Below, piece by piece: positions 11,171 through 24,233 of a stretch of 64,000 nucleotides of DNA. The DNA is from Somniosus microcephalus. Taxonomy: Eukaryota. Both the position numbers and the translations under genes were made by a program. Location: contig CM126223.1 of assembly GCA_052327205.1 (NCBI GenBank), positions 21,328,001-21,392,000 on the forward strand, read 5' to 3'. Each line of letters starts with the position of its first letter. Within the stretch, counting starts at the first letter, position 1. The notes under the pieces are model-generated. The model saw only the letters and a list, made by a program, of their open reading frames with translations. It was not told the DNA's origin and did no database searches.

Positions 11171-11559
11171 TTGTGTTTCACTGAGATTAAACTTGCAGGA
11201 ACAGATTAAAACACACCAATTCAGCTGATTTAATGAACGTTGTAAATGAAAGGGGCATTGTCACCCGCTTCACTGACCCGATCTTGCACCAGGTGTGTAA
11301 ACACAGGCATGTTTAATTACATCATTTAAAAATATTTGTTTATGGGATTCGGACATTGCAGGCAAGGCCAGCATTTATTGCTCATCCCTAGTTGCCCTTG
11401 AGAAGGTGGTGAGCCGCCTTCTTGAACAGCTGCAGTCCATTTGGTGAAGGTTACTCCCACAGTGCTGTTGGGGCGGGAGCTCCAGGATTTTGACCCAGCG
11501 ATGATGAAGGAACGGCGATATACTTCTAAGTCAGGATGGTGCATGAGTTGGAGGGGAAC

Positions 11560-12319
11560 GAGGCTCGTGGATAGCACGTTTAGCGAGTTGTTCACGCCTC
11601 GGGGCAGGGCGGCACAGGGGGTGACCATCAGGCGGAGCAACAAAGGCAGGCAGGTAATGCAGGGAACCCCTGCGGGCATCCCCCTTTCAAACAAGTATAC
11701 CGCTTTGGATACTGTTGAGGGGGATGACTCACCAGGGGAAGGCAGCAGCAGCCAACTTCCTGGCACTGGGGGTGCTCCTGCTGCCCAGGAAGGGGGGAAA
11801 AAGAGTGGGAGAGCAATAGTGGTAGGGGATTCTATAGTAAGGGGAACAGATAGGCGTTTCTGTGGCCGTAGACGTGAATCCAGGATGGTTTGTTGCCTCC
11901 CTGGTGCCAGGGTCAAGGATGTCACTGAGCGGCTGCAGGGCATTCTGGAGGGGGAGGGTGAACAGGCAATGGTCGTGGTCCACATTGGTACCAACGACAT
12001 AGGTAAAAAGAGGGATGAGGTCCTGCATCAAGAATTTAGGGAGCTAGGTAACAGATTAAAGAGCAGGACCTCAAAGGTTGTAATCTCTGGATTACTCCCA
12101 GTGCCACGTGCTAGTAAGTATAGGAATGGGAGGATAGAGCAGATGAATGCGTGGCTAAAGAGTTGGTGTAGGGGGGAGGGTTTTACTTTCCTGGATCACT
12201 GGGCCTGCTTCTGGGAAAGGTGGGACTTGTACAAGTCGGACGGGTTGCACCTGAACCAGAGCGGGACAAATATCCTTGCGGGGAGGTTTGCTAGCACTGT
12301 TGGGGGGGGTTTAAACTAA
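11560..12319 (+). CDS. CR1 ORF1p, C-terminal SGNH/GDSL esterase domain (5'-truncated)
   Basis: VGDSIVRG, HIGTND and DGLHLN blocks; stop TAA 12317-12319. Confidence 0.88.
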
Positions 12320-15237
12320 CTTGGCAGGGGGATGGGATACAGAGGGGAGCTGAAATAGGGGGGGATGTGCTGCCAATTATAGAGAAAAAAACAAGTCAGC
12401 TTGGTAGACAGGGCAAATATATAAGGGCAAGGCTGGATGGCATCTATTTTAATGCAAGGAGTCTTGCGAATAAGGTGGATGAACTGAAGGTGTTGATAAA
12501 CACATGGGAGTATGATATTGTTGCTATCACGGAGACATGGTTGAGGGAAGGGCAAGACTGGCAGCTCAATATTCCGGGGTACAGAATCTTCAGGCGAGAC
12601 AGAGGGGGAGGTATAAGAGGAGGGGGTGTCGCAATATTAATTAAGGAGTCAATTACTGCAGTAAGGAGGGATGATATATTAGCAGGGTCCTCCAATGAGG
12701 CCATATGGGTGGAGCTTAAAAACAAAAAGGGGGCAAGCACTTTGCTGGGAGTGTACTATAGGCCTCCAAACAGTCAGGGGGAGATAGAGGAACAGATATG
12801 TAGGCAAATCTCAGAGAAATGTGCAAATAATAGGGTAATAATAATGGGGGATTTCAACTTCCCCAATATTAACTGGGATAGTCAGAGTGTGAAAGGCTCA
12901 GAGGGTGTAGAATTCTTAAAGTGCATCCAGGAGAGCTTTTTGAGCCAGCATGTAGAAAGTCCTACAAGAGAGGGGGCAGTACTGGACCTAATTCTCGGGA
13001 ATGTGGCCGGCCAAGTGGAAAAAGTGCTAGTAGGTGAGCACTTTGGTGATAGTGACCATAATATGGTAAGATTTAAGGTGGCCATGGAAAAGTACAGGGA
13101 TGGGCCGGAAATAAAGGTTCTAAATTGGGGGAAGGCGGATTTTAATAGGATAAGGCAGGATCTGGCCAAAATGGACTGGGATCAGCTACTTGTAGGAAAA
13201 TCCGCATCGGAGCAATGGGAGGCTTTCAGAAGGGAGATTGAGAACATACAATGGCAACATGTTCCCGTAAAGGTCAAGGGTGGTTCCAAAAACCACAGGG
13301 AACCTTGGATGTCAGGGGATATACGGGAATGGATTAGGAAAAAAAGGAGGGCTTTTGGTAGATACAAAAGGCTAAAGACGGAGGAAGCCCTAGAGGAGTA
13401 CAAAAAGTGCAGGGGGATACTTAAAAAAGAAATTAGGAGATCAAGGAGGGGCCATGAAATAACACTGGCAAGCAAAATAAAGGAAAATCCGAAGATGTTT
13501 TATAAGTATATTAAGGGTAAGAGGATAACTAGGGAAAAAATAGGGCCCATTAGGGACAAAAGTGGCAATCTGTGTGAGGAGCCGGAAGATGTAGGAGGGG
13601 TTCTGAATGAATTTTTTGCGTCTGTTTTCACTATGGAGAAGGACGATGTAGACATAGAAATAGGGCGGGGGGACTGTGATATGCTCGAACATATTAACAT
13701 CGAGCGGGGGGAGGTATTGGCAGTTTTAGCTGGCCTAAAAATGGATAAATCCCCAGGCCCGGATGAAATGTATCCCAGGCTGCTGTGTGAGGCAAAGGAG
13801 GAGATTGCGGGGGCTCTAACACATATATTCAGGACCTCTCTGGCCACAGGGGATGTGCCAGAGGACTGGAGAACCGCTAATGTAGTACCATTATTCAAGA
13901 AGGGTAGTAGGGAAAAACCGGGGAACTACAGGCCAGTGAGCCTAACATCAGTGGTAGGAAAATTATTGGAAAAAATCCTGAGGGACAAAATGTGTCTCCA
14001 CTTGGAGAGGCAAGGATTAATCAGGGATAGTCAACATGGCTTTGTCAAGGGAAGATCATGTCTGACTAATTTGATTGAATTTTTTGAGGGGGTGACTAGG
14101 TGTGTGGATGAGGGTAACGCAGTGGATGTGGTATACATGGATTTCAGTAAGGCCTTCGATAAAGTCCCGCACAGGAGACTGGTCAAGAAGGTAAGAGCCC
14201 ATGGAATCCAGGGTGCCTTGGCACATTGGATACAAAACTGGCTTAGTGGCAGAAGGCAGAGGGTGATGGTCGAAGGTTGTTTTTGTGACTGGAAGCCTGT
14301 GGCCAGTGGGGTACCACAGGGATCGGTGCTGGGTCCCTTGCTGTTTGTGGTCTACATTAATGACTTGGATATGAATGTAAAGGGTATGATCAGTAAGTTC
14401 GCGGATGATACAAAAATTGGTAGGGTGGTAAATAGCGAGGAGGGTAGCCTCAGTCTGCAGGACGATATAGATGGGTTGGTCAGATGGGCGGAACAGTGGC
14501 AAATGGAATTTAACCCGGAAAAGTGCGAGGTGATGCACTTTGGGGGGACTAACAAGGCAAAGGAATACACAATGAATGGAAAGACCCTAGGCAAGACGGA
14601 GGGTCAGAGGGATCTGGGTGTGCAAGTACACAGATCCCTGAAGGCGGCGGAACAGGTGGATAAGGTGGTAAAAAAGGCATATGGGATACTTGCCTTCATT
14701 AGCCGAGGCATTGAATATAAGAGCAAGGAGGTTATGATGGAGCTGTATAAAACACTGGTTAGGCCACAGCTGGAATATTGTGTGCAGTTCTGGTCGCCAC
14801 ACTACAGGAAGGATGTGATCGCGTTAGAGAGGGTGCAGAGGAGGTTCACCAGGATGTTACCAGGGCTGGAGCGCTTCAGCTATGAAGAGAGACTGGGCAG
14901 GTTGGGTTTGTTTTCCTTGGAGCTGAGGAGGCTGAGGGGGGACATGATTGAGGTGTACAAAATTATGAGGGGCATAGATAGGATGGATGCTGAGGAGCTT
15001 TTTCCCTTAGTAGAGGGGTCGATAACTAGGGGGCATAGATTCAAGGTAAAGGGCGGGAGGTTTAGAGGGGATTTGAGAAAGAACTTTTTCACCCAGAGGG
15101 TGGTTGGAGTCTGGAACTCACTGCCTGAAAGGGTTGTGGAGGCAGAAACCCTCACAACATTTAAGAAGCATTTGGATGTGCACTTGAAATGCCATAGCAT
15201 ACAAGGCTACGGGCCAAATGCTGGAATATGGGATTAG
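12310..15237 (+). CDS. CR1 ORF2p, APE endonuclease plus reverse transcriptase, uninterrupted
   Basis: YFNARS, ITETW, GDFN, SDH endonuclease motifs; PQGSVLGP and FADD RT motifs; frame open from 12310 (-1 relative to ORF1). Confidence 0.92.
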   Translation, partial: FKLTWQGDGIQRGAEIGGDVLPIIEKKTSQLGRQGKYIRARLDGIYFNARSLANKVDELKVLINTWEYDIVAITETWLREGQDWQLNIPGYRIFRRDRGGGIRGGGVAILIKESITAVRRDDILAGSSNEAIWVELKNKKGASTLLGVYYRPPNSQGEIEEQICRQISEKCANNRVIIMGDFNFPNINWDSQSVKGSEGVEFLKCIQESFLSQHVESPTREGAVLDLILGNVAGQVEKVLVGEHFGDSDHNMVRFKVAMEKYRDGPEIKVLNWGKADFNRIRQDLAKMDWDQLLVGKSASEQWEAFRREIENIQWQHVPVKVKGGSKNHREPWMSGDIREWIRKKRRAFGRYKRLKTEEALEEYKKCRGILKKEIRRSRRGHEITLASKIKENPKMFYKYIKGKRITREKIGPIRDKSGNLCEEPEDVGGVLNEFFASVFTMEKDDVDIEIGRGDCDMLEHINIERGEVLAVLAGLKMDKSPGPDEMYPRLLCEAKEEIAGALTHIFRTSLATGDVPEDWRTANVVPLFKKGSREKPGNYRPVSLTSVVGKLLEKILRDKMCLHLERQGLIRDSQHGFVKGRSCLTNLIEFFEGVTRCVDEGNAVDVVYMDFSKAFDKVPHRRLVKKVRAHGIQGALAHWIQNWLSGRRQRVMVEGCFCDWKPVASGVPQGSVLGPLLFVVYINDLDMNVKGMISKFADDTKIGRVVNSEEGSLSLQDDIDGLVRWAEQWQMEFNPEKCEVMHFGGTNKAKEYTMNGKTLGKTEGQRDLGVQVHRSLKAAEQVDKVVKKAYGILAFISRGIEYKSKEVMMELYKTLVRPQLEYCVQFWSPHYRKDVIALERVQRRFTRMLPGLERFSYEERLGRLGLFSLELRRLRGDMIEVYKIMRGIDRMDAEELFPLVEGSITRGHRFKVKGGRFRGDLRKNFFTQRVVGVWNSLPERVVEAETLTTFKKHLDVHLKCHSIQGYGPNAGIWD

Positions 15238-16047
15238 ATTAGACAGGGCTTGATGGCCGGCGCGGACACGATGGGCCGAAGGGCCTCTATCCGTGCTGTA
15301 TTACTCTATGACTCTATGACTTGCTGCCCTTGTCCTTCTAGGCGGTAGAGGTCGGTTTGGGAGGTGCTGCCGAAGAAGCCTTGGTGAGTTTGCTGCAGTG
15401 CATCTTGTAGGCGGTACACACTGCAGCCACGGTACGCTGGCGGTGGAGGGAGTGAATGTTTAAGGTGATGGATGGGGTGCCAATCAAGCGGGCTGCTTTG
15501 TCTTGGATGGTGTCGAGCTTCTTGAGTGTTGTTGGAACTGCAATCATCACACTCCTCACAGAATACCCAGCCTCCGGCCTGCTCTTGTTGCCAGAGTATT
15601 TATGTGGCTGGTCCAGTTAAGCTTCTGGTCAATGGTGACCCCCCAGGATATTGATGGTGGGGGATTTGGTGATGGTAATGCCGTTGAATGTCAAGGGCGG
15701 TGGTTTGACACTCGCTTGTTGGAGACAGTCATTGCCTGGCACTTCTGTTACCTACCACTTATCAGCCCAAGCCTGAATGATGTCCAGGTCTTGCTGCATG
15801 TGGGCATGGACTGCTTCATTATCTGTGGAGTTGCGAATGGAGCTGAACCCTGTGCAGTCATCAGCGAACATCCCCACTTCTGACCTTATAATGGAGGGAA
15901 GGTCATTGATGAAGCAGCTGAAGATGGTTGGGCCTAGGACACTGTCCTGAGGAACTCCTGCAGCGATGTCCTGGGGCAGAGATGATTGACCTCCAACCAC
16001 CACAACCATCTTCCTTTGTGCTAGGTATGACTCCAGCCAGTGGAGGG

Positions 16048-16271
16048 TGTATTGCTTTCTATGTGGGTTCAATGACGACACATTCATGAAAGAGATGTCT
16101 TTTTATCTAAAGTATGTTCAACTCAGTTAACAGCATTACAGGAGACACCATCTTAGAGCTCCATCTAAAACGAAACCAAAACTAAACTCTGCCTCTGTCA
16201 CATGCCCTCTGCTGGTAAGGCATAAATAATCAAACAGGCAAATACCATCACTATTTGCTGATATCATTACA
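16048..16271 (-). repeat. 3' LTR of Gypsy A (224 bp)
   Basis: Matches 25309-25356 plus 26081-26256 with about 2 substitutions; adjacent polypurine tract. Confidence 0.93.
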
Positions 16272-16482: not shown

Positions 16483-17634
16483 TTAAACTTGCTCAATGAG
16501 TCTCTCAGGAGGCTTCACGTGTCTTGAGGATTTTCTGATTGATTGTCCTTGAATCTGAGTTGTTGCCTCAGATGATTGGTTCTCAGCTGTGTGATCAGGT
16601 TGTTCAACAGTATCAGTCTTTTGACCTGCTGTGTGATCAGGTTGTTCAACAGTATCAGTCTTTTGGCCTGCTGTGGCTGGTCCCATGAGAAGATCCTGAT
16701 GATTTCTTCGCAGAACAGCACCCTCATCTGTCTGAATGGTGTATGATCTTGGTTGAACTTCACTCAGGACAGTTCCCTTCTGAGTCCATATGTTTGTTTC
16801 GTCTTTGAACCTTACTTGGTCACCAGTGTGGAGTTCAGGTAGGTTTTGTGTTCCTCTGTCATAGTAGTACTTTTGCTTTTCTTTCTGTTGTTCTTTGAAC
16901 TTCCTCACTTTCTCCCCCTCTTTTGTTTTCAGGAGGTTCTCCGGGATGGGTAGGTTTGACCTTAACAGACGTCCCATAAGGAGTTGGGCTGGTGACATAC
17001 CACACTCGAGCGGCGTTGTGCGGTATACAAGCATGCTCTGGTAGAAGTCAGTTCCACTGTCTTTTGCCTTGTACATCAGTCTTTTCACTGTCTGGACCGA
17101 TTTTTCCACTAGTCCATTGGACTGTGGAAAGTGAGGACTTGACGTTGTGTGGACAAAGTCCCACTCTTTGGCAAAGTGTCGGAAACTTGCATTGTAAAAC
17201 TGGGGTCCGTTGTCTGTGAAGACCTCGCTTGCCACGCCATGTCTGGAGAATATGGCTTTCATACATGTTATCACAGCATCTGCAGTGGTGGTGTACAGTC
17301 TACAAACCTCTGGATACAGGGAGTAATAGTCTGTGACTACAAGATAGTCCTTCCCTTGACATACGAATAGGTCAGCGCCTACCTTCTGGTAAGGTCTGTC
17401 TGGCGCTGGGTGTGGCTTTAGTGGTTCTACCGGATTGCTTGCTCGATATTTCAGGCATATTGTGCAGTTTGACACCTCATTTGTCACATCTTGGTTGATT
17501 CGTGGCCAGTACATCACCTCTCGTGCTCTTTTCTTACACTTTTCGATTCCCAGATGTCCTCCATGGATCCTTTTTAGCATCTCTTTTCTCAGACTCTTTG
17601 GGATAACTATTTTACTTCCTTTGTAGATGATGTC
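16483..17634 (-). CDS. Gypsy A integrase
   Basis: HGGHLG..CTIC zinc finger; GADLF, TDNGPQF, SNGLVEK DDE core; frame joins RNase H across the Gypsy B TSD (VVEDI/IYKGSKIVIP). Confidence 0.9.
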   Translation of the reverse strand, partial: DIIYKGSKIVIPKSLRKEMLKRIHGGHLGIEKCKKRAREVMYWPRINQDVTNEVSNCTICLKYRASNPVEPLKPHPAPDRPYQKVGADLFVCQGKDYLVVTDYYSLYPEVCRLYTTTADAVITCMKAIFSRHGVASEVFTDNGPQFYNASFRHFAKEWDFVHTTSSPHFPQSNGLVEKSVQTVKRLMYKAKDSGTDFYQSMLVYRTTPLECGMSPAQLLMGRLLRSNLPIPENLLKTKEGEKVRKFKEQQKEKQKYYYDRGTQNLPELHTGDQVRFKDETNIWTQKGTVLSEVQPRSYTIQTDEGAVLRRNHQDLLMGPATAGQKTDTVEQPDHTAGQKTDTVEQPDHTAENQSSEATTQIQGQSIRKSSRHVKPPERLIEQV

Positions 17635-20600
17635 TGATGCGCTATCAATTACTCATAAAAGACTGAGAGTTAGAAGAGTAACTAAAGGCTTTTATTAACA
17701 ACAGAATGGAGGTCTGCCTCGCGTGGTCGACCGGTCCAGGATACAAAGGGCTGGGGAGCAGTCACCTTTATACTAGGACCTGTGGGAGGAGTCAGCCGAG
17801 GCATGTCCAGGCATGTACACAGTGGAATACAAACAGGACAAACAGGAATACAAACAGTGGTTTACCACATTCACCCCTTGTTTAAAATTGAGTCTGGCGG
17901 GGTGAAGTGTATTAAAAGTTAGTGTATTGGAGTCTCTCCGGAGGTCTTGTCTGCCGCTGTGATCGGCGTGGCGACGGCAGGGGTAGTGAAGCTTCCGGCG
18001 TCGAGTCCAGCGTAGGCTGTGGCACAGGCGTGTCGTCCTCGTAGATGTCGAGCGGGTCGCGGGGCCCAGGCCTGCCGTCTGCTGGGGCTGGATATCGGAT
18101 CGTGGGGGGGGGTGGTAGTGGGTAGTGGGTTACTGCGGCCCCCGAGGGTGCAAGGTCTCTTATGGAGACTGTGTCCTCCCGCCCGTCCGGGTATGCGATG
18201 TAAGCATACTGGGGGTTGGCGTGGAGGAGGTCGACCCTCTCAACCAGGGGGTCCGTTTTATGGGTCCTCACGTGTCTTCTCAGTAGGACCGGCCCTGGGG
18301 ACGTCAGCCATGGTGGTAGCGATGTCCCCGATGTGGACTTCCTTGGGAAGACAAACATTTTCTCATGAGGGGTGGCGTTAGTGGCAGTGCAGGGCAGTGA
18401 CCGAATAGAGTGGAGCGCATCGGGGAGCACATCCTGCCAGCGGGAGGTTGGAAGGCCCCTAGACTTTAAGGCTAGCAGGACGGCCTTCCAAACTGTCGCA
18501 TTTTCTCTTTCCACCTGTCCGTTCCCCCGGGGGTTGTAACTGGTGGTCCTACTTGTGGCAATACCCCTAGTTAGCAGGTACTGATGGAGTTCGTCGCTCA
18601 TAAACGATGAGCCCCGGTCGCTATGGATATAGCTGGGGAAGCCGAACAGGGTGAAGAGGTTGTTCAGACATTTAATGACCGTGGCACTGGTCATGTCCGG
18701 GCAGGGGAAGGCGAACGGGAAACGGGAGTACTCATCAATAATATTGAGGAAGTACACATTGCGGTCGGAGGAGGGGAGAGGCCCTTTAAAATCAACGCTC
18801 AGGTGCTCGAAGGGGCGAGTGGCTTTTATCAGGTGGGCCCTGTCTGGTCTATAAAAGTGCGGTTTGCACTCAGCGCAGACTTGGCAGTTCCTGGTCATGG
18901 TCCTGACCTCCTCAATAGAGTAAGGCAGGTTGCGGGCCTTGATGAGGTGGAAGAACCTGGTGACCCCCGGGTGGCAGAGGTCATTGTGGAGGGCCCGCAG
19001 TCTATCGATCTGCGCGCTGGCGCAGGTGCCACGCGATAGCGCATCCGGGGGTTCATTTAGCTTCCCGGGCCGGTACAAGATCTCGTAGTTGTAGGTGGAA
19101 AGTTCGATTCTCCACCTCAAGATCTTGTCATTTTTGATTTTGCCCCTCTGCTTGTTGTTAAACATAAAAGCAACTGAACGCTGGTCAGTGAGCAGGGTAA
19201 ATCGTTTTCCGGCCAGGTAGTGCCTCCAATGACGCACAGCCTCCACAATCGCCTGGGCCTCCTTCTCAACAGCGGAGTGTCTGGTCTCCGGGCCTTGGAG
19301 GGTTCGTGAAAAGAAGGCCACGGGTCTCCCCGCCTGATTGAGGGTAGCGGCCAGGGCAAAGTCGGATGCGTCGCTTTCCACCTGGAAGGGGATGGATTCG
19401 TCCACTGCGTGCATGGTGGCTTTGGCAATGTCCTCCTTGATACGGTGGAAGGCTAAGCGGGCCTCTGCCGTCAAGGGAAAAGAGGTGGACTTGATCAGCG
19501 GACGGGCCTTGTCCGCATAGTAGGGGACCCACTGGGCGTAATAGGAGAAAAACCCTAGGCACCTCTTCAGGGCCTTGAGGCAGTGGGGCAGTGGAAGTTC
19601 CATAAGGGGACGCATCCGGTCGGGGTCGGGGCCGATGACTCCGTGTTCCACAACACAGCCAAGGATGGCGAGGCGGTTTGTGCGGAATATGCACTTCTCC
19701 TTGTTATATGTCAGGTTTAGGAGTTGGGTGGTGCGGAGGAATTTTTCGAGGTTTGCGTCATGGTCCTGCAAATCACGGCCGCAGATGGTCACATTGTCCA
19801 GATATGGGAAAGCGGCCTGCAACGCATTTTGATCTACCATCCGGTCCATCTCCCTTTGGAAGACGGAGACCCCGTTGGTGACGCCAAAGGGAACCCTAAG
19901 GAAGTGATAGAGGCAGCCGTTTGCCTCAAAGGCAGTGTACTGGCGGTTCTCAGGGCGGATGGGGAGCTGGTGGTACGCTGATTTCAGGTCAATGGTCGAG
20001 AAGACGCGGTACTGCGCGATCTGGTTGACCATATCAGCTATACGGGGGAGTGGGTAGGCGTCAAGCAGGGTGTAGCGATTTATTGTCTGGCTGTAGTCGA
20101 TGACCAGGCGCTGCTTCTCGCCGGTCTTAACGACCACAACCTGGGCTCGCCAGGGGCTGGTGCTGCCCTCAATAATCCCTTCTTTCAGGAGCTGCTCCAC
20201 TTCGGTTTTAATGAAAACCCTGTCCCCGGCACTGTATCGCCTGCTCTTTGTGGCGATGGGCTTACAGTCGGGGGTGAGGTTAGCAAACAGTGGTGGGGGG
20301 GTGACTCTGAGTGTGGAGAGGTTGCACCTGGTGCGCGGCGGGCAATTTGGAAGCTGCTGGCTGCGGACTGTGAGTGGGGGTAGGGGTCCACCGTACGCCA
20401 TCGTAACACTTTTAAGGTGGCACTGAAAATCTAACCCCAGCAGGACGGCAGCGCAGAGGTCAGGCAGGACCAGAAGTTTAAAATGATCGTACACGGTCCC
20501 GTCTACTACGAGTGTCACCACGCAGTAGCCGCCGATGTCCGCCGACTGGGACTCGGAGGCCATAGAAATCCGCTGTTGCGCAGGCAGGACTGGGAGAGAG

Positions 20601-22009
20601 CAACGCCGCACCGTGTCGGGGTGGATGAAGCTCTCCGTGCTCCCAGAGTCAAAAAGGCAGATTGTATCGTGACCATTTACCTTAATGTCCATTGTGGAAC
20701 TGGCCAGTTGGTGCGGTCTCGCTTGGTCCAGTGTAACGGATGCCAGCGTAGGGGTCGGTGTGTCGCTGCGGGTATCAGATGAGGCGGTGTCGGGGGCCTG
20801 CTGCGTCCCGGCTGTCGTCCAAGATGGCTGCGTCCATGATCCCCATGTGGCTGGAGGCGTCCAAAATGGCTGCTGTACCGGTGATTCGCACATGGCCGGG
20901 GAGGTCCAAGATGGCGGCCCGCATGGCCCACACGCGGCGCTGCTGGGGTTCGGGGTGGCTTTGGCCCTGCAGACGCTAGCGTAGTGTCCCTTCTTCCCGC
21001 AGCCCGAGCAGATCGCGTTTTTCGCCGGGCAGCGCGCTCTGGGGTGTTTTGCCTGGCCACAGAAGTAGCATTTCTGGCCTTGGGGCACTGCAGTCTGGCC
21101 TTGGGACACTGCTGCGGTAGTTGGGCCGTTGTTGGGGTGTGGCTGGGGTGGCACGGCACTATGAGGCGGTCCTACCGTGTCTCAGGCTGTCATTCCCCGC
21201 GGCGTCCACGGTGCAGAGGAGTAGGCATCCATGCCCTGGTAGGCTGCATCCAACGATAGTGCGAGTTCAGAGGCCTTGTTGAGGTCGAGGTTACTCTGCT
21301 CCAACAGTCGCTGTCGGGTGTAATTGGATCTGTGGCCCGCTACAAAAGCGTCCCGGATAAGTTCCTCTGTGTACACGGCGGCTTTTACATCCTTACAACC
21401 ACAGGCCCGGCCAAGCACAGACAGTGCCTGAAGGTATTCCACGGTCGATTCCCCAGGTTGTTGTTTACGACTCCCCAGGAGGTGCCTGGCGTACACTTCG
21501 TTCACTGGGTGCGTGTACTGGTCCTTGAGGAGCTTGATAGCGTCCGCGTACGAGGTCGCGTCTTGGATGACCGAGTACACTCGGTGGTTCACTTTGGAGG
21601 TCAGGACATCCAGTTTGTCCTCGTCCGATTTGATTGCTTCGGAGGCGGTCAGGAATTTTTCGAAACACTTAAGCCAGTGAGTAAACTTGGTGGATGAGTC
21701 CGCCTCCTGATGATCTAAGTCCAGGCATGCTGGTGTGAGGATCTTCTCCATTATAAAAATGTTGTTAATAAAATTGATGCGCTATCAATTACTCATAAAA
21801 GACTGAGAGTTAGAAGAGTAACTAAAGGCTTTTATTAACAACAGAATGGAGGTCTGCCTCGCGTGGTCGACCGGTCCAGGATACAAAGGGCTGGGGAGCA
21901 GTCACCTTTATACTAGGACCTGTGGGAGGAGTCAGCCGAGGCATGTCCAGGCATGTACACAGTGGAATACAAACAGGACAAACAGGAAAACAAACAGTGG
22001 TTTACCACA
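17635..22009 (-). mobile_element. Gypsy/Ty3 LTR retrotransposon B, complete and very young, nested in Gypsy A
   Basis: 235-bp LTRs 17635-17869 and 21775-22009 differing at one base; TSD ATGTC; PPT AAGGGGTGAA. Confidence 0.96.
17912..21751 (-). CDS. Gypsy B gag-pol polyprotein (single frame, one internal TGA at 21182-21184)
   Basis: ORFs 21182..21751 and 17912..21154 are in the same frame; two Cys/His knuckles, FDSGS protease, RT with YLDN, RNase H SDAS/TDQ, HHCC plus DDE integrase. Confidence 0.9.
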
Positions 22010-23880
22010 ATGTCTTCGACCACTGATAGTTCCGCCCTGCAGTTCCAGTACTCTGCCATGTCAGGTGAGCAGTCTTGCTTCATGTTGGGCCATCCATCCA
22101 AGATGCTTTTCCTCAGTCGTCTCAGTGTTTCATCTTTGTTTGCCTCAGTCTTTATGAGCTCCATTTTTGCATCTGCTATGGGCAGTGCACTTGTGATCAT
22201 GTCCACGTAAGCGTTCACTTTTTCATCCATTTTGGTGTTTGCGGGCTCACTTGGGTCAACAGCTCTGGACAACGTGTCTGCTGTATACATCAGCTTACCC
22301 GGTGTGTACGCAACATTCAGTGTATAGCGTTGCAGCCTGATCATCATTCTTTGTATTCTAAGCGGACAGCTATTTAGTGCCTTTTGGAACAATGCAATCA
22401 AGGGCTTATGGTCAGTCTCTACACTGATTGCTTGTCCTGACACAAACTGGTGAAATCTTTCACAGGTGTATGTGATGCTGAGCAGCTCCTTTTCTATTTG
22501 AGCATATCGCGTCTCCGCGTCTGTCATTGAGCGCGATGCATATGCAATAGGTTGCCAGTAGTCATATTTTTGCAGAAGAACGGCACCGAGCCCACTCTGT
22601 GATGCATCTGATGATATCTTGATGGGTCTCGCTGGGTCATAAAACCTCAGAACTGGTTCCTCTGTGAGCAGTTTCTTTAGATCGCACCATGACTTCTCAT
22701 GCTCATGATTCCATTCCCATTCTATGTTCTTTTCAGTTAGTCGTCTCAGTGGCGCCATCTTTTCTGAGAGGTTGGATATGAATTTACCCATGTAGTTGAT
22801 CATTCCATTAAACCTCTGCACGTCCTTTTTGCATTGTGGCTTTGGCATATTCTCAATGGCGGACACCTTTCTGGGATCTGGTCTGATGCCCTCACTGCTA
22901 AGGATATCTCCCACGAATGTCAGTTCTGTCACCCCGAGCTGGCATTTCTCTCTATTCAGCTTCAGGTTTGTTTTCCTTGTTGCTTCCAGCACTTTTTTCA
23001 GTCTCTCGTCATGCTCAGTTCTCGTGGTTCCCCATACTATGATGTCATCCATTGAGGTATCAACTCCCTCCAGGTGCTCATAGATCATATGGATAGTTTT
23101 GTGATACACTTCAGGAGCTGAGGCAACGCCAAATGGTAACCTTAGGAATCTGTATCTGCCAAATGGACTGTTGAACGTGCACAGTCTTGAACTTGCCTTG
23201 TCCAATTTCATCTGCCAAAATCCTGATGATGTATCTAACTTGCTGAAATACTTTGCATTTGCAAACTGTGACATGATTTCCTCACGTGTAGGAAGCTTGA
23301 AGTGCTCTCTCTTTATTGCTCTGTTTAGATCTCTTGGATCCAGGCAAATTCTGAGCTTTCCATTCTTTTTGTCCACAATGACGAGGGAACTCACCCACTC
23401 AGTTGGCTCATCTATCTTCTGAATCACGTTCAGGCTTTCCATCCTGTCCAACTCTGCCTTCAGTTGCTTTTGAAGAGCAAACGGAACTTTTCTGCATGGA
23501 TGTATGACCGTTGGCATACTTTTATCTACTCTGATCGTGTGTTCTCCTGGAAGGCAGCCTAGACCCTTAAATAGGTCATTGTACTCTTTCATGAGTTCAT
23601 CATAGACTGCCTCTCCTTCGCTTTCCACAACAAGGACTCTCTTTACCAGGTTCAGTCTCTCACAGGCTATTAAACCTAGTATGGCTTGCACATCCTTTGG
23701 CACCACGATTAATGCTAGCGTGTGCTCTCTGTCCTTGTGTGTCACTTTGACAATGCATTTTCCTTTCACTGGTATATCAGTACCTGAGTATCCTGTCACT
23801 TTCACTTTTATTCCATGTATCTTTGGTCTGGGTCTAATTTTCTTAAAATCAGTCTCTGATATCACATTAACTTGTGCTCC
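22010..23880 (-). CDS. Gypsy A pol (protease C-half, RT, RNase H)
   Basis: RICLDPRDLN, LPFG, SMDD, SDASQSGLGAVL, ETDHKPL in ORF 21913..23865. Confidence 0.9.
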
Positions 23881-24233
23881 ACAGAATCACAGAAACCCCA
23901 CAGTGCAGATGGAGGCCATTTCGGCCCATCGAGCCTGCACCGACACATATCCCACCCGATCCCCGTAACCCCTACACCAACACATGTCCCACCCTATCCT
24001 TGTAACCCCACGTATTTAATCCCCCTAACACTAAGGGTCAATTTATCATAGCCAATCAACCTAACCCGCACATCTTTGGACTGTGGGAGGAAACCTGAGC
24101 ACCCGGAGAAAACCCACGCAAACACGGGGAGAATGTGCAAACTCCACACAGACAGTCGCCCGAGGCCGGATTCGAACCCGGGTCTCTGGCGCTGTGAGGC
24201 AACAGTGCTAACCACTATGCCACCGTGCTGCCC
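23881..24233 (-). mobile_element. tRNA-derived V-SINE (HE1-like) with CR1-derived tail
   Basis: Head GGGCAGCACGGTGGCATAGTGGTTAGC..GGTTCGAATCC (A/B boxes), V core TGTGTGGAGTTTGCACATTCTCCCCGTG, tail GGGCCGAAATGGCCT..ATTCTGT. Confidence 0.9.

Follow-up and report, generated by a model that had tools for sequence, protein, structure and literature searches.

We report that the two open reading frames (ORF1 and ORF2) of a young CR1 long interspersed nuclear element (LINE) in Somniosus microcephalus meet at a real and conserved junction, and that -1 programmed ribosomal frameshifting at U_UUA_AAC in this junction probably yields an ORF1-ORF2 fusion protein, as judged from the comparison of related copies. 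The copy lies in the window analysed here, a stretch of 64,000 nucleotides (nt) by whose numbering all positions are given (GenBank assembly GCA_052327205.1, contig CM126223.1, positions 21,328,001 to 21,392,000 of the forward strand). An ORF1-ORF2 fusion by -1 frameshifting had been proposed in an earlier note drawn from the letters of this stretch; comparison supports U_UUA_AAC as its site, but the second heptamer, the stem and the three-tier G-quadruplex that the note had added are not conserved. CR1 is among the chief LINEs of birds, reptiles and cartilaginous fish. The way in which LINEs with two ORFs produce ORF2 is settled only in part, and reinitiation is the standard view. The features of the copy are the following.

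11564..15320, plus strand: 5'-truncated young CR1 LINE copy; the match to full-length copies begins at ~11564 and a short tandem tail ends at ~15320.
11564..12319, plus strand: C-terminal part of ORF1, an SGNH/GDSL esterase ending in Gly-Leu-Asn-stop (Pfam Lipase_GDSL_2, E 4.8e-16; translation).
12307..12313, plus strand: overlapping heptamer G_GGU_UUA, present in the window and not conserved (in 3/10 lineages GAT or CAT stands before TTA).
12310..12316, plus strand: slippery heptamer U_UUA_AAC, conserved and the candidate site of the shift (36,749/39,483 junctions; TTA AAC in 10/10 lineages).
12317..12319, plus strand: ORF1 stop immediately 3' of the heptamer, TAA or TAG across lineages (lineage comparison).
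12316..12450, plus strand: variable linker in the -1 frame without AUG; the distance from heptamer to endonuclease is 141 nt here and 156-204 nt in other lineages; ratio of nonsynonymous to synonymous substitution rates (dN/dS) 0.53 against the sister family.
12322..12336, plus strand: conserved G-rich tract with a two-tier G-quadruplex pattern, either a candidate stimulator or a sign of coding constraint; an invariant block 5-6 nt after the heptamer in alignment A2, for which copies were chosen by a pattern covering part of the tract.
12321..12376, plus strand: the 7-base-pair stem and three-tier G-quadruplex of the earlier note, subfamily-specific and not significant.
12448..13059, plus strand: APE endonuclease of ORF2 (Pfam Exo_endo_phos, E 1.6e-15, residues 52-255), with the first in-frame ATG (12844) inside it.
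13906..14580, plus strand: reverse transcriptase (RT) domain of ORF2 (Pfam RVT_1, E 1.7e-34, residues 538-762); the ORF2 stop is at 15235-37.

Within the window, the positions on which the proposal was built proved correct: GGGTTTA at 12307-13, TTTAAAC at 12310-16, TTGGCAG at 12321-27, CTGCCAA at 12370-76, the four G runs and GTG at 12367. Both overlapping heptamers do lie in the zero frame of ORF1, and the -1 frame is, as had been stated, open to the ORF2 stop, running stop to stop from 12295 to 15237 (980 codons; 975 open codons when counted from the heptamer). Its first ATG is indeed late and inside the endonuclease, at 12844, 159 codons past the GTG and ~130 residues into the Pfam match. 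UUUAAAC is the coronavirus site. Strict XXXYYYZ words are common by chance (265 on the plus strand of the window, 12 within the CR1 element), so the heptamer counts only through its placement and its conservation. As for placement, U_UUA_AAC at 12310-16 is a canonical X_XXY_YYZ heptamer in the zero frame, following the consensus in PMC3542737.

As for conservation, a search of the genome (6.4 Gb) with a pattern made of the heptamer, the stop and the downstream tract gave 36,749 matches, and its control 1. With the pattern relaxed to any Leu and Asn codons and any preceding base, 39,483 junctions were matched, and TTTAAAC stood before the stop in 93% of them. Thirty loci reached through an ORF1 motif independent of the junction comprised 25 with TTTAAAC, 1 with TTTAAAT, 2 with an altered first base and 2 in which the junction was lost. 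Identity over 12150-12600 was 100% in all 40 scored matches (from 861 candidates, so at least 40 identical copies), which indicates that the family is young and that the AUG-less ORF2 is not damage in a single copy.

When copies were grouped by their linkers, 122 loci with the ORF1 anchor gave 68 distinct sequences, 63 of which had both anchors and 5 of which were dropped; the 63 copies formed 9 clusters, and the largest was divided in two by length, making 10 lineages. The last ORF1 codons are TTA AAC in 10/10 lineages, whereas codon usage varies in each of the 6 other columns with invariant Leu; among 17 columns with an invariant residue, 5 have an invariant codon, and two of those are TTA AAC. 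The heptamer is conserved beyond what the ORF1 amino acids need. The codon before TTA is GGT, GAT or CAT (Gly, Asp or His), its final T being kept in 9/10 representatives and one having GGC. With GAT and CAT the T stays, but the amino acid changes and G_GGU_UUA is lost; it was rejected as a shift site on that ground; of the two heptamers put forward as sites, only U_UUA_AAC is conserved across lineages.

Beyond the heptamer, the main distances to the first Asn of the endonuclease are 141, 156, 162, 171, 177, 180, 186, 195, 198 and 204 nt, all multiples of three. The frame is kept in 56 of the 63 copies, 52 of them open in -1, the other two frames containing 2-10 stops; one lineage is represented only by an out-of-frame copy (L046) and one by a stop-containing copy (L061). 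In four lineages ORF2 is intact, running uninterrupted from the heptamer to its stop (975, 980, 988 and 983 codons), and its first Met comes at codon 178, 43, 19 and 255. Codon 178 belongs to the window family and codon 255 to L082/83/96/97; their proteins are 50% identical, and both are without an AUG ahead of the endonuclease. At the place of an AUG in its sister family, the window family is 15 nt shorter, with the frame preserved, and it still multiplied. Upstream of ATG 12844, dN/dS against the sister family is 0.07 (5.5 nonsynonymous and 19.5 synonymous differences in 131 codons), a strong purifying selection which implies that this region is translated, and not from that ATG. On the other side of the heptamer, the -1 frame closes 5 codons upstream in 9/10 lineages, with no start codon between.

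These observations bear on the standard view, according to which ORF2 would come from termination-reinitiation or non-AUG initiation just past the ORF1 stop, with Leu-Asn kept for protein or termination reasons. We regard this as unlikely for the CR1 junction. It has precedent, since translation of L1 and SART1 ORF2 has been described as an ORF1-dependent unconventional initiation (PMC2881922) and that of L1 ORF2 as independent of AUG (PMC5009743), and it would suit a stop that always adjoins the site, the failure to find a structure and the linker AUGs of some lineages. Yet there is no in-frame stop-start overlap: an in-frame AUG overlapping the ORF1 stop, as in SART1-type coupling, was looked for in the 10 representatives, and none lies within 19 codons of the heptamer. 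The linker's near-cognate codons differ in position from lineage to lineage, and the fixed TTA AAC and the fixed preceding T are left unpredicted. The GUG at 12367, which the earlier note had named as a possible independent start of ORF2, is not a conserved start, and it was rejected together with other near-cognate starts because their positions vary by lineage.

Slippage of RNA polymerase or reverse transcriptase in the G or U/A runs could also fuse the frames, by adding a base to some transcripts or copies. Eight G precede the heptamer in the window family, and one extra base is present in 3/58 junction-independent copies; copies of this kind (L060, L065, L068 and L167) read through. But spacing is normal in 49/58, offsets of -1, +2 and +3 are about equally common, and the intact lineages L091 and L083 are without a long G run, so that we think slippage very improbable. 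L165 and L166 (G000), considered as natural fusions for their long open frames, were rejected, the junction of L166 being normal and L165 having no junction match.

More improbable still is splicing, whereby an ORF2 mRNA would be made by joining, for example, a donor-like site in the 5' untranslated region (UTR) to an AG near the junction. Sequences that resemble donors do precede ORF1 in full-length copies, and at 12316-27 CAG comes after a word that resembles a branch point, but no pyrimidine tract is present (at most 8/15 across ten AGs) and the branch-like word varies between lineages. The donor is kept unspliced in 2,685 copies, and among 34 examined from 369 copies with other bases after the donor, none joins to ORF2; the spliced processed copies that would have spoken for this route, which the earlier note had raised as an alternative, were not seen among them. 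Contigs of four sequencing runs presumed to be RNA contained five joints, none of them GT..AG, although such contigs cannot show expression or its absence; one of the contigs spans 12269-12477 unspliced.

By -1 frameshifting, a small share of ribosomes would slip back one base at U_UUA_AAC before the ORF1 stop, the tRNA-Leu and tRNA-Asn presumably slipping in tandem from UUA AAC to UUU AAA, and reading would resume at CTA (12316-18). Most ribosomes would stop and release ORF1p. The fusion from a full-length copy would comprise ~1,285 amino acids, 312 from ORF1 and 973 from ORF2.

As far as tested, the site resembles a viral -1 site but fails its structured-stimulator feature: the canonical stem-loop or pseudoknot 5-9 nt downstream was not found, pseudoknots being covered only indirectly by folding, and a conserved local hairpin or pseudoknot does not appear to serve as stimulator. 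The stem between TTGGCAG and CTGCCAA, proposed earlier for this role, has a folding energy of -10 kcal/mol and a z-score of +0.43, 131/200 shuffles folding equally well; its complement is perfect in 10/63 copies, all within the window's own lineage cluster, and it has no covariation. The four-run G-quadruplex of the same proposal held in part, in that the three-tier pattern is genuine and the sole such match in the element, but the alignment shows no conservation of G runs 3 and 4, and the position of the pattern is specific to the window subfamily. Conservation reaches ~20 nt beyond the stop and then collapses. A two-tier pattern stands 6 nt after the heptamer in 7/10 lineages, is wider in 1 and absent in 2; the three-tier pattern is found in 2.

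UUUAAAC has been used as an efficient frameshift site, and engineered G-quadruplexes placed 5-8 nt after it gave up to ~7% shift, with the best effect at 6-8 nt, natural cases being left open (Yu et al., PMC3919603). The CR1 G tract likewise begins 6 nt after the heptamer, but the engineered quadruplexes have three-G tracts (PMC3919603) whereas the CR1 pattern is two-tier and absent in 2/10 lineages. We favour the G-rich tract as stimulator, possibly as a two-tier quadruplex or a binding site for a protein, together with slow decoding of the stop next to the heptamer; this is the least certain part of our interpretation, and the tract may alternatively reflect coding constraint or a protein site. 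A site in ORF1 ~425 nt upstream can pair with the G tract in 6/9 copies, a weak match in a conserved protein motif and without a shuffle control.

At the protein level, ORF1 relatives in other species extend the comparison, the closest named ones being those of sharks and rays. Among the 156 matches listed in a profile search, the motif and a tail of 22-45 residues were present in 110, and these ended in LN (52, a count inflated because the profile, A1, itself ended in LN and favoured such matches), GN (10), KN (3) or otherwise (45), where the background for these dipeptides is 1.1%. A second search found an LN end in 49/62 relatives. Named LN-enders include those of sawshark, catshark, skate, rays, sturgeon, two teleosts, frogs, lizards and turtles. 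The residue before LN is one without a U-ending codon in 1/114 proteins, where ~15% would be expected (the sequences are not independent), and 9/10 GN ends are preceded by Gln, whose codon can end in G. L, G and K seem alike in nothing as residues, yet they can be encoded by UUA, GGA and AAA, the XXA codons of slippery heptamers, and the GN and KN ends would fit G_GGA_AAC and A_AAA_AAC. Frameshifted protein models from Hypanus (a ray) and Chrysemys (a turtle) have Phe-Lys-Leu at the site, which requires T_TTA_AA there. Another lineage of ORF1 relatives is compatible with a -1 overlap at 13/14 codons, from a Lys-Asn 13 codons before the stop and on into the endonuclease. Neither the alternation of LN, GN and KN nor an overlap starting 13 codons before the stop is predicted by reinitiation.

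Two further observations concern these relatives. A few distant relatives (P0189, P0192, P0216 and P0171) have Phe-Phe-Arg or Phe-Phe-His at the end, residues that could come from a U-rich slippery heptamer. Two ORF1 esterases (P0003, P0031) are filed under Pseudomonas aeruginosa and Proteus mirabilis, likely by host contamination of assemblies.

Several results weigh against frameshifting at U_UUA_AAC or limit the case for it. There is no conserved base-paired stimulator, folding z-scores ranging from -1.5 to +1.3 across the 10 lineages, and RNAalifold on 8 copies found no fold common to them (-0.2 kcal/mol, 0 compensatory pairs). A duplex scan of 9 copies found no shared long-range 3' partner for the G tract, and pairing of the tract with the 3' end of the element was rejected for this reason. 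L061 and the intact lineage L043/L083 lack the two-tier pattern. An in-frame AUG is present in the linker of 4/10 representatives, two intact lineages among them, and the linker is weakly constrained (dN/dS 0.53, 1.02 and 0.32). Sampling was in part biased, as 3/10 lineages were reached only via a pattern containing the heptamer and 1 via a protein ending in LN, leaving 6 reached without the heptamer. Among the ORF1 relatives, besides the bias of profile A1, the 45/110 that end otherwise must be counted, and at 55% identity 12/28 groups mostly end in LN, GN or KN. Finally, the junction DNA of other species was not found in metagenome, viral or prokaryote contigs.

It may be that -1 frameshifting is the ancestral and general route to RT in the esterase-type CR1 LINEs of jawed vertebrates, and in relatives with G_GGA_AAC or A_AAA_AAC, delivering the enzyme as a Gag-Pol-like fusion with the zinc finger and esterase of ORF1, with a small natural G-quadruplex and the adjacent stop as stimulator in place of a base-paired one. 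Taken jointly, these statements are speculative, and we lean against their all being correct.

Shifting of this kind has precedent among LINEs. Dictyostelium TRE5-A and TRE3-A are, like CR1, two-ORF APE-type non-LTR (long terminal repeat) elements, and a -1 frameshift is stated to be required for their ORF2 (PMC5911963); they differ in clade and host, and TRE ORF2 has a zinc finger. The arrangement is also that of retroviral gag-pol and coronavirus 1a/1b, with X_XXY_YYZ in the zero frame and the enzyme ORF in -1 (PMC3542737), but CR1 has no conserved stem-loop or pseudoknot 5-9 nt downstream, its stop directly follows the heptamer and no protease cuts the fusion. With L1 and SART1, CR1 shares a bicistronic LINE RNA in which ORF2 depends on ORF1 translation (PMC2881922); those elements reinitiate and make a separate ORF2p, whereas the CR1 frames overlap at a slippery heptamer without a conserved in-frame start. 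If the CR1 site works as proposed, its stimulator would be an unusual one.

The literature searched contains no report of CR1 frameshifting; the founding CR1 papers lie outside it, so an earlier suggestion there is possible. The frameshifting review of Atkins 2016 notes frameshifting within HeT-A gag and does not contain 'CR1' in its first 300,000 characters. CR1 subgroup 7 with ORF1 type IVB, described as vertebrate-only and as having a zinc finger/leucine zipper and an esterase in ORF1 (Metcalfe and Casane, PMC4120745), is a close counterpart of our element, and the available text of that paper makes no mention of a frameshift or overlap.

If frameshifting operates as proposed, the active CR1 enzyme would be a ~1,285-amino-acid fusion tied to the multimerising and esterase domains of ORF1, and the ratio of fusion to ORF1p would be set by the shift rate. 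The annotated start of CR1 ORF2 would change, with consequences for the design of constructs for retrotransposition assays, and a frameshift site without classic structure would be on offer for study.

The family has the features of CR1, with a zinc finger (in full-length copies) and SGNH esterase in ORF1, APE and RT in ORF2 and a short tandem 3' tail, and its ORF1 is of type IVB of vertebrate CR1 by the features in PMC4120745. The label CR1 is given on this architecture and on the lizard and turtle relatives of ORF1. A PDB search with the ORF2 endonuclease returned no matches. Compared with full-length copies, the window copy has no promoter and lacks the first ~60 ORF1 codons. The full-length copies L008 and L018 have ORF1 from its ATG; the 5' UTR of full-length copies is tandemly repeated, and their ORF1 has 312 codons with two CxxC pairs at the N-terminus. 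L008 and L018 begin with the repeat, of ~64 base pairs, and have two donor-like sites upstream of ORF1 (5' UTR positions ~1-500 and ~560-590). A variant with a 15-nt deletion, without the first donor-like site and with ORF1 kept, accounts for 14/15 loci examined from 338 matches.

The window also holds a second, decayed CR1 copy on the minus strand (ORF1 end 1688-1536, ORF2 start 1417-492), in which the heptamer (1542-1533) has one substitution (TTTAAGC) and is followed by TAA, the junction being laid out alike. No clear target-site duplication was seen around the main copy, which seems to be inserted in or beside an older, different minus-strand LINE (15641-16102 and the flank 11340-11563). 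Further on, at 16483-23886 of the minus strand, gypsy-like LTR retrotransposons, apparently nested or in tandem, are represented by three long ORFs (protease, RT, RNase H and integrase).

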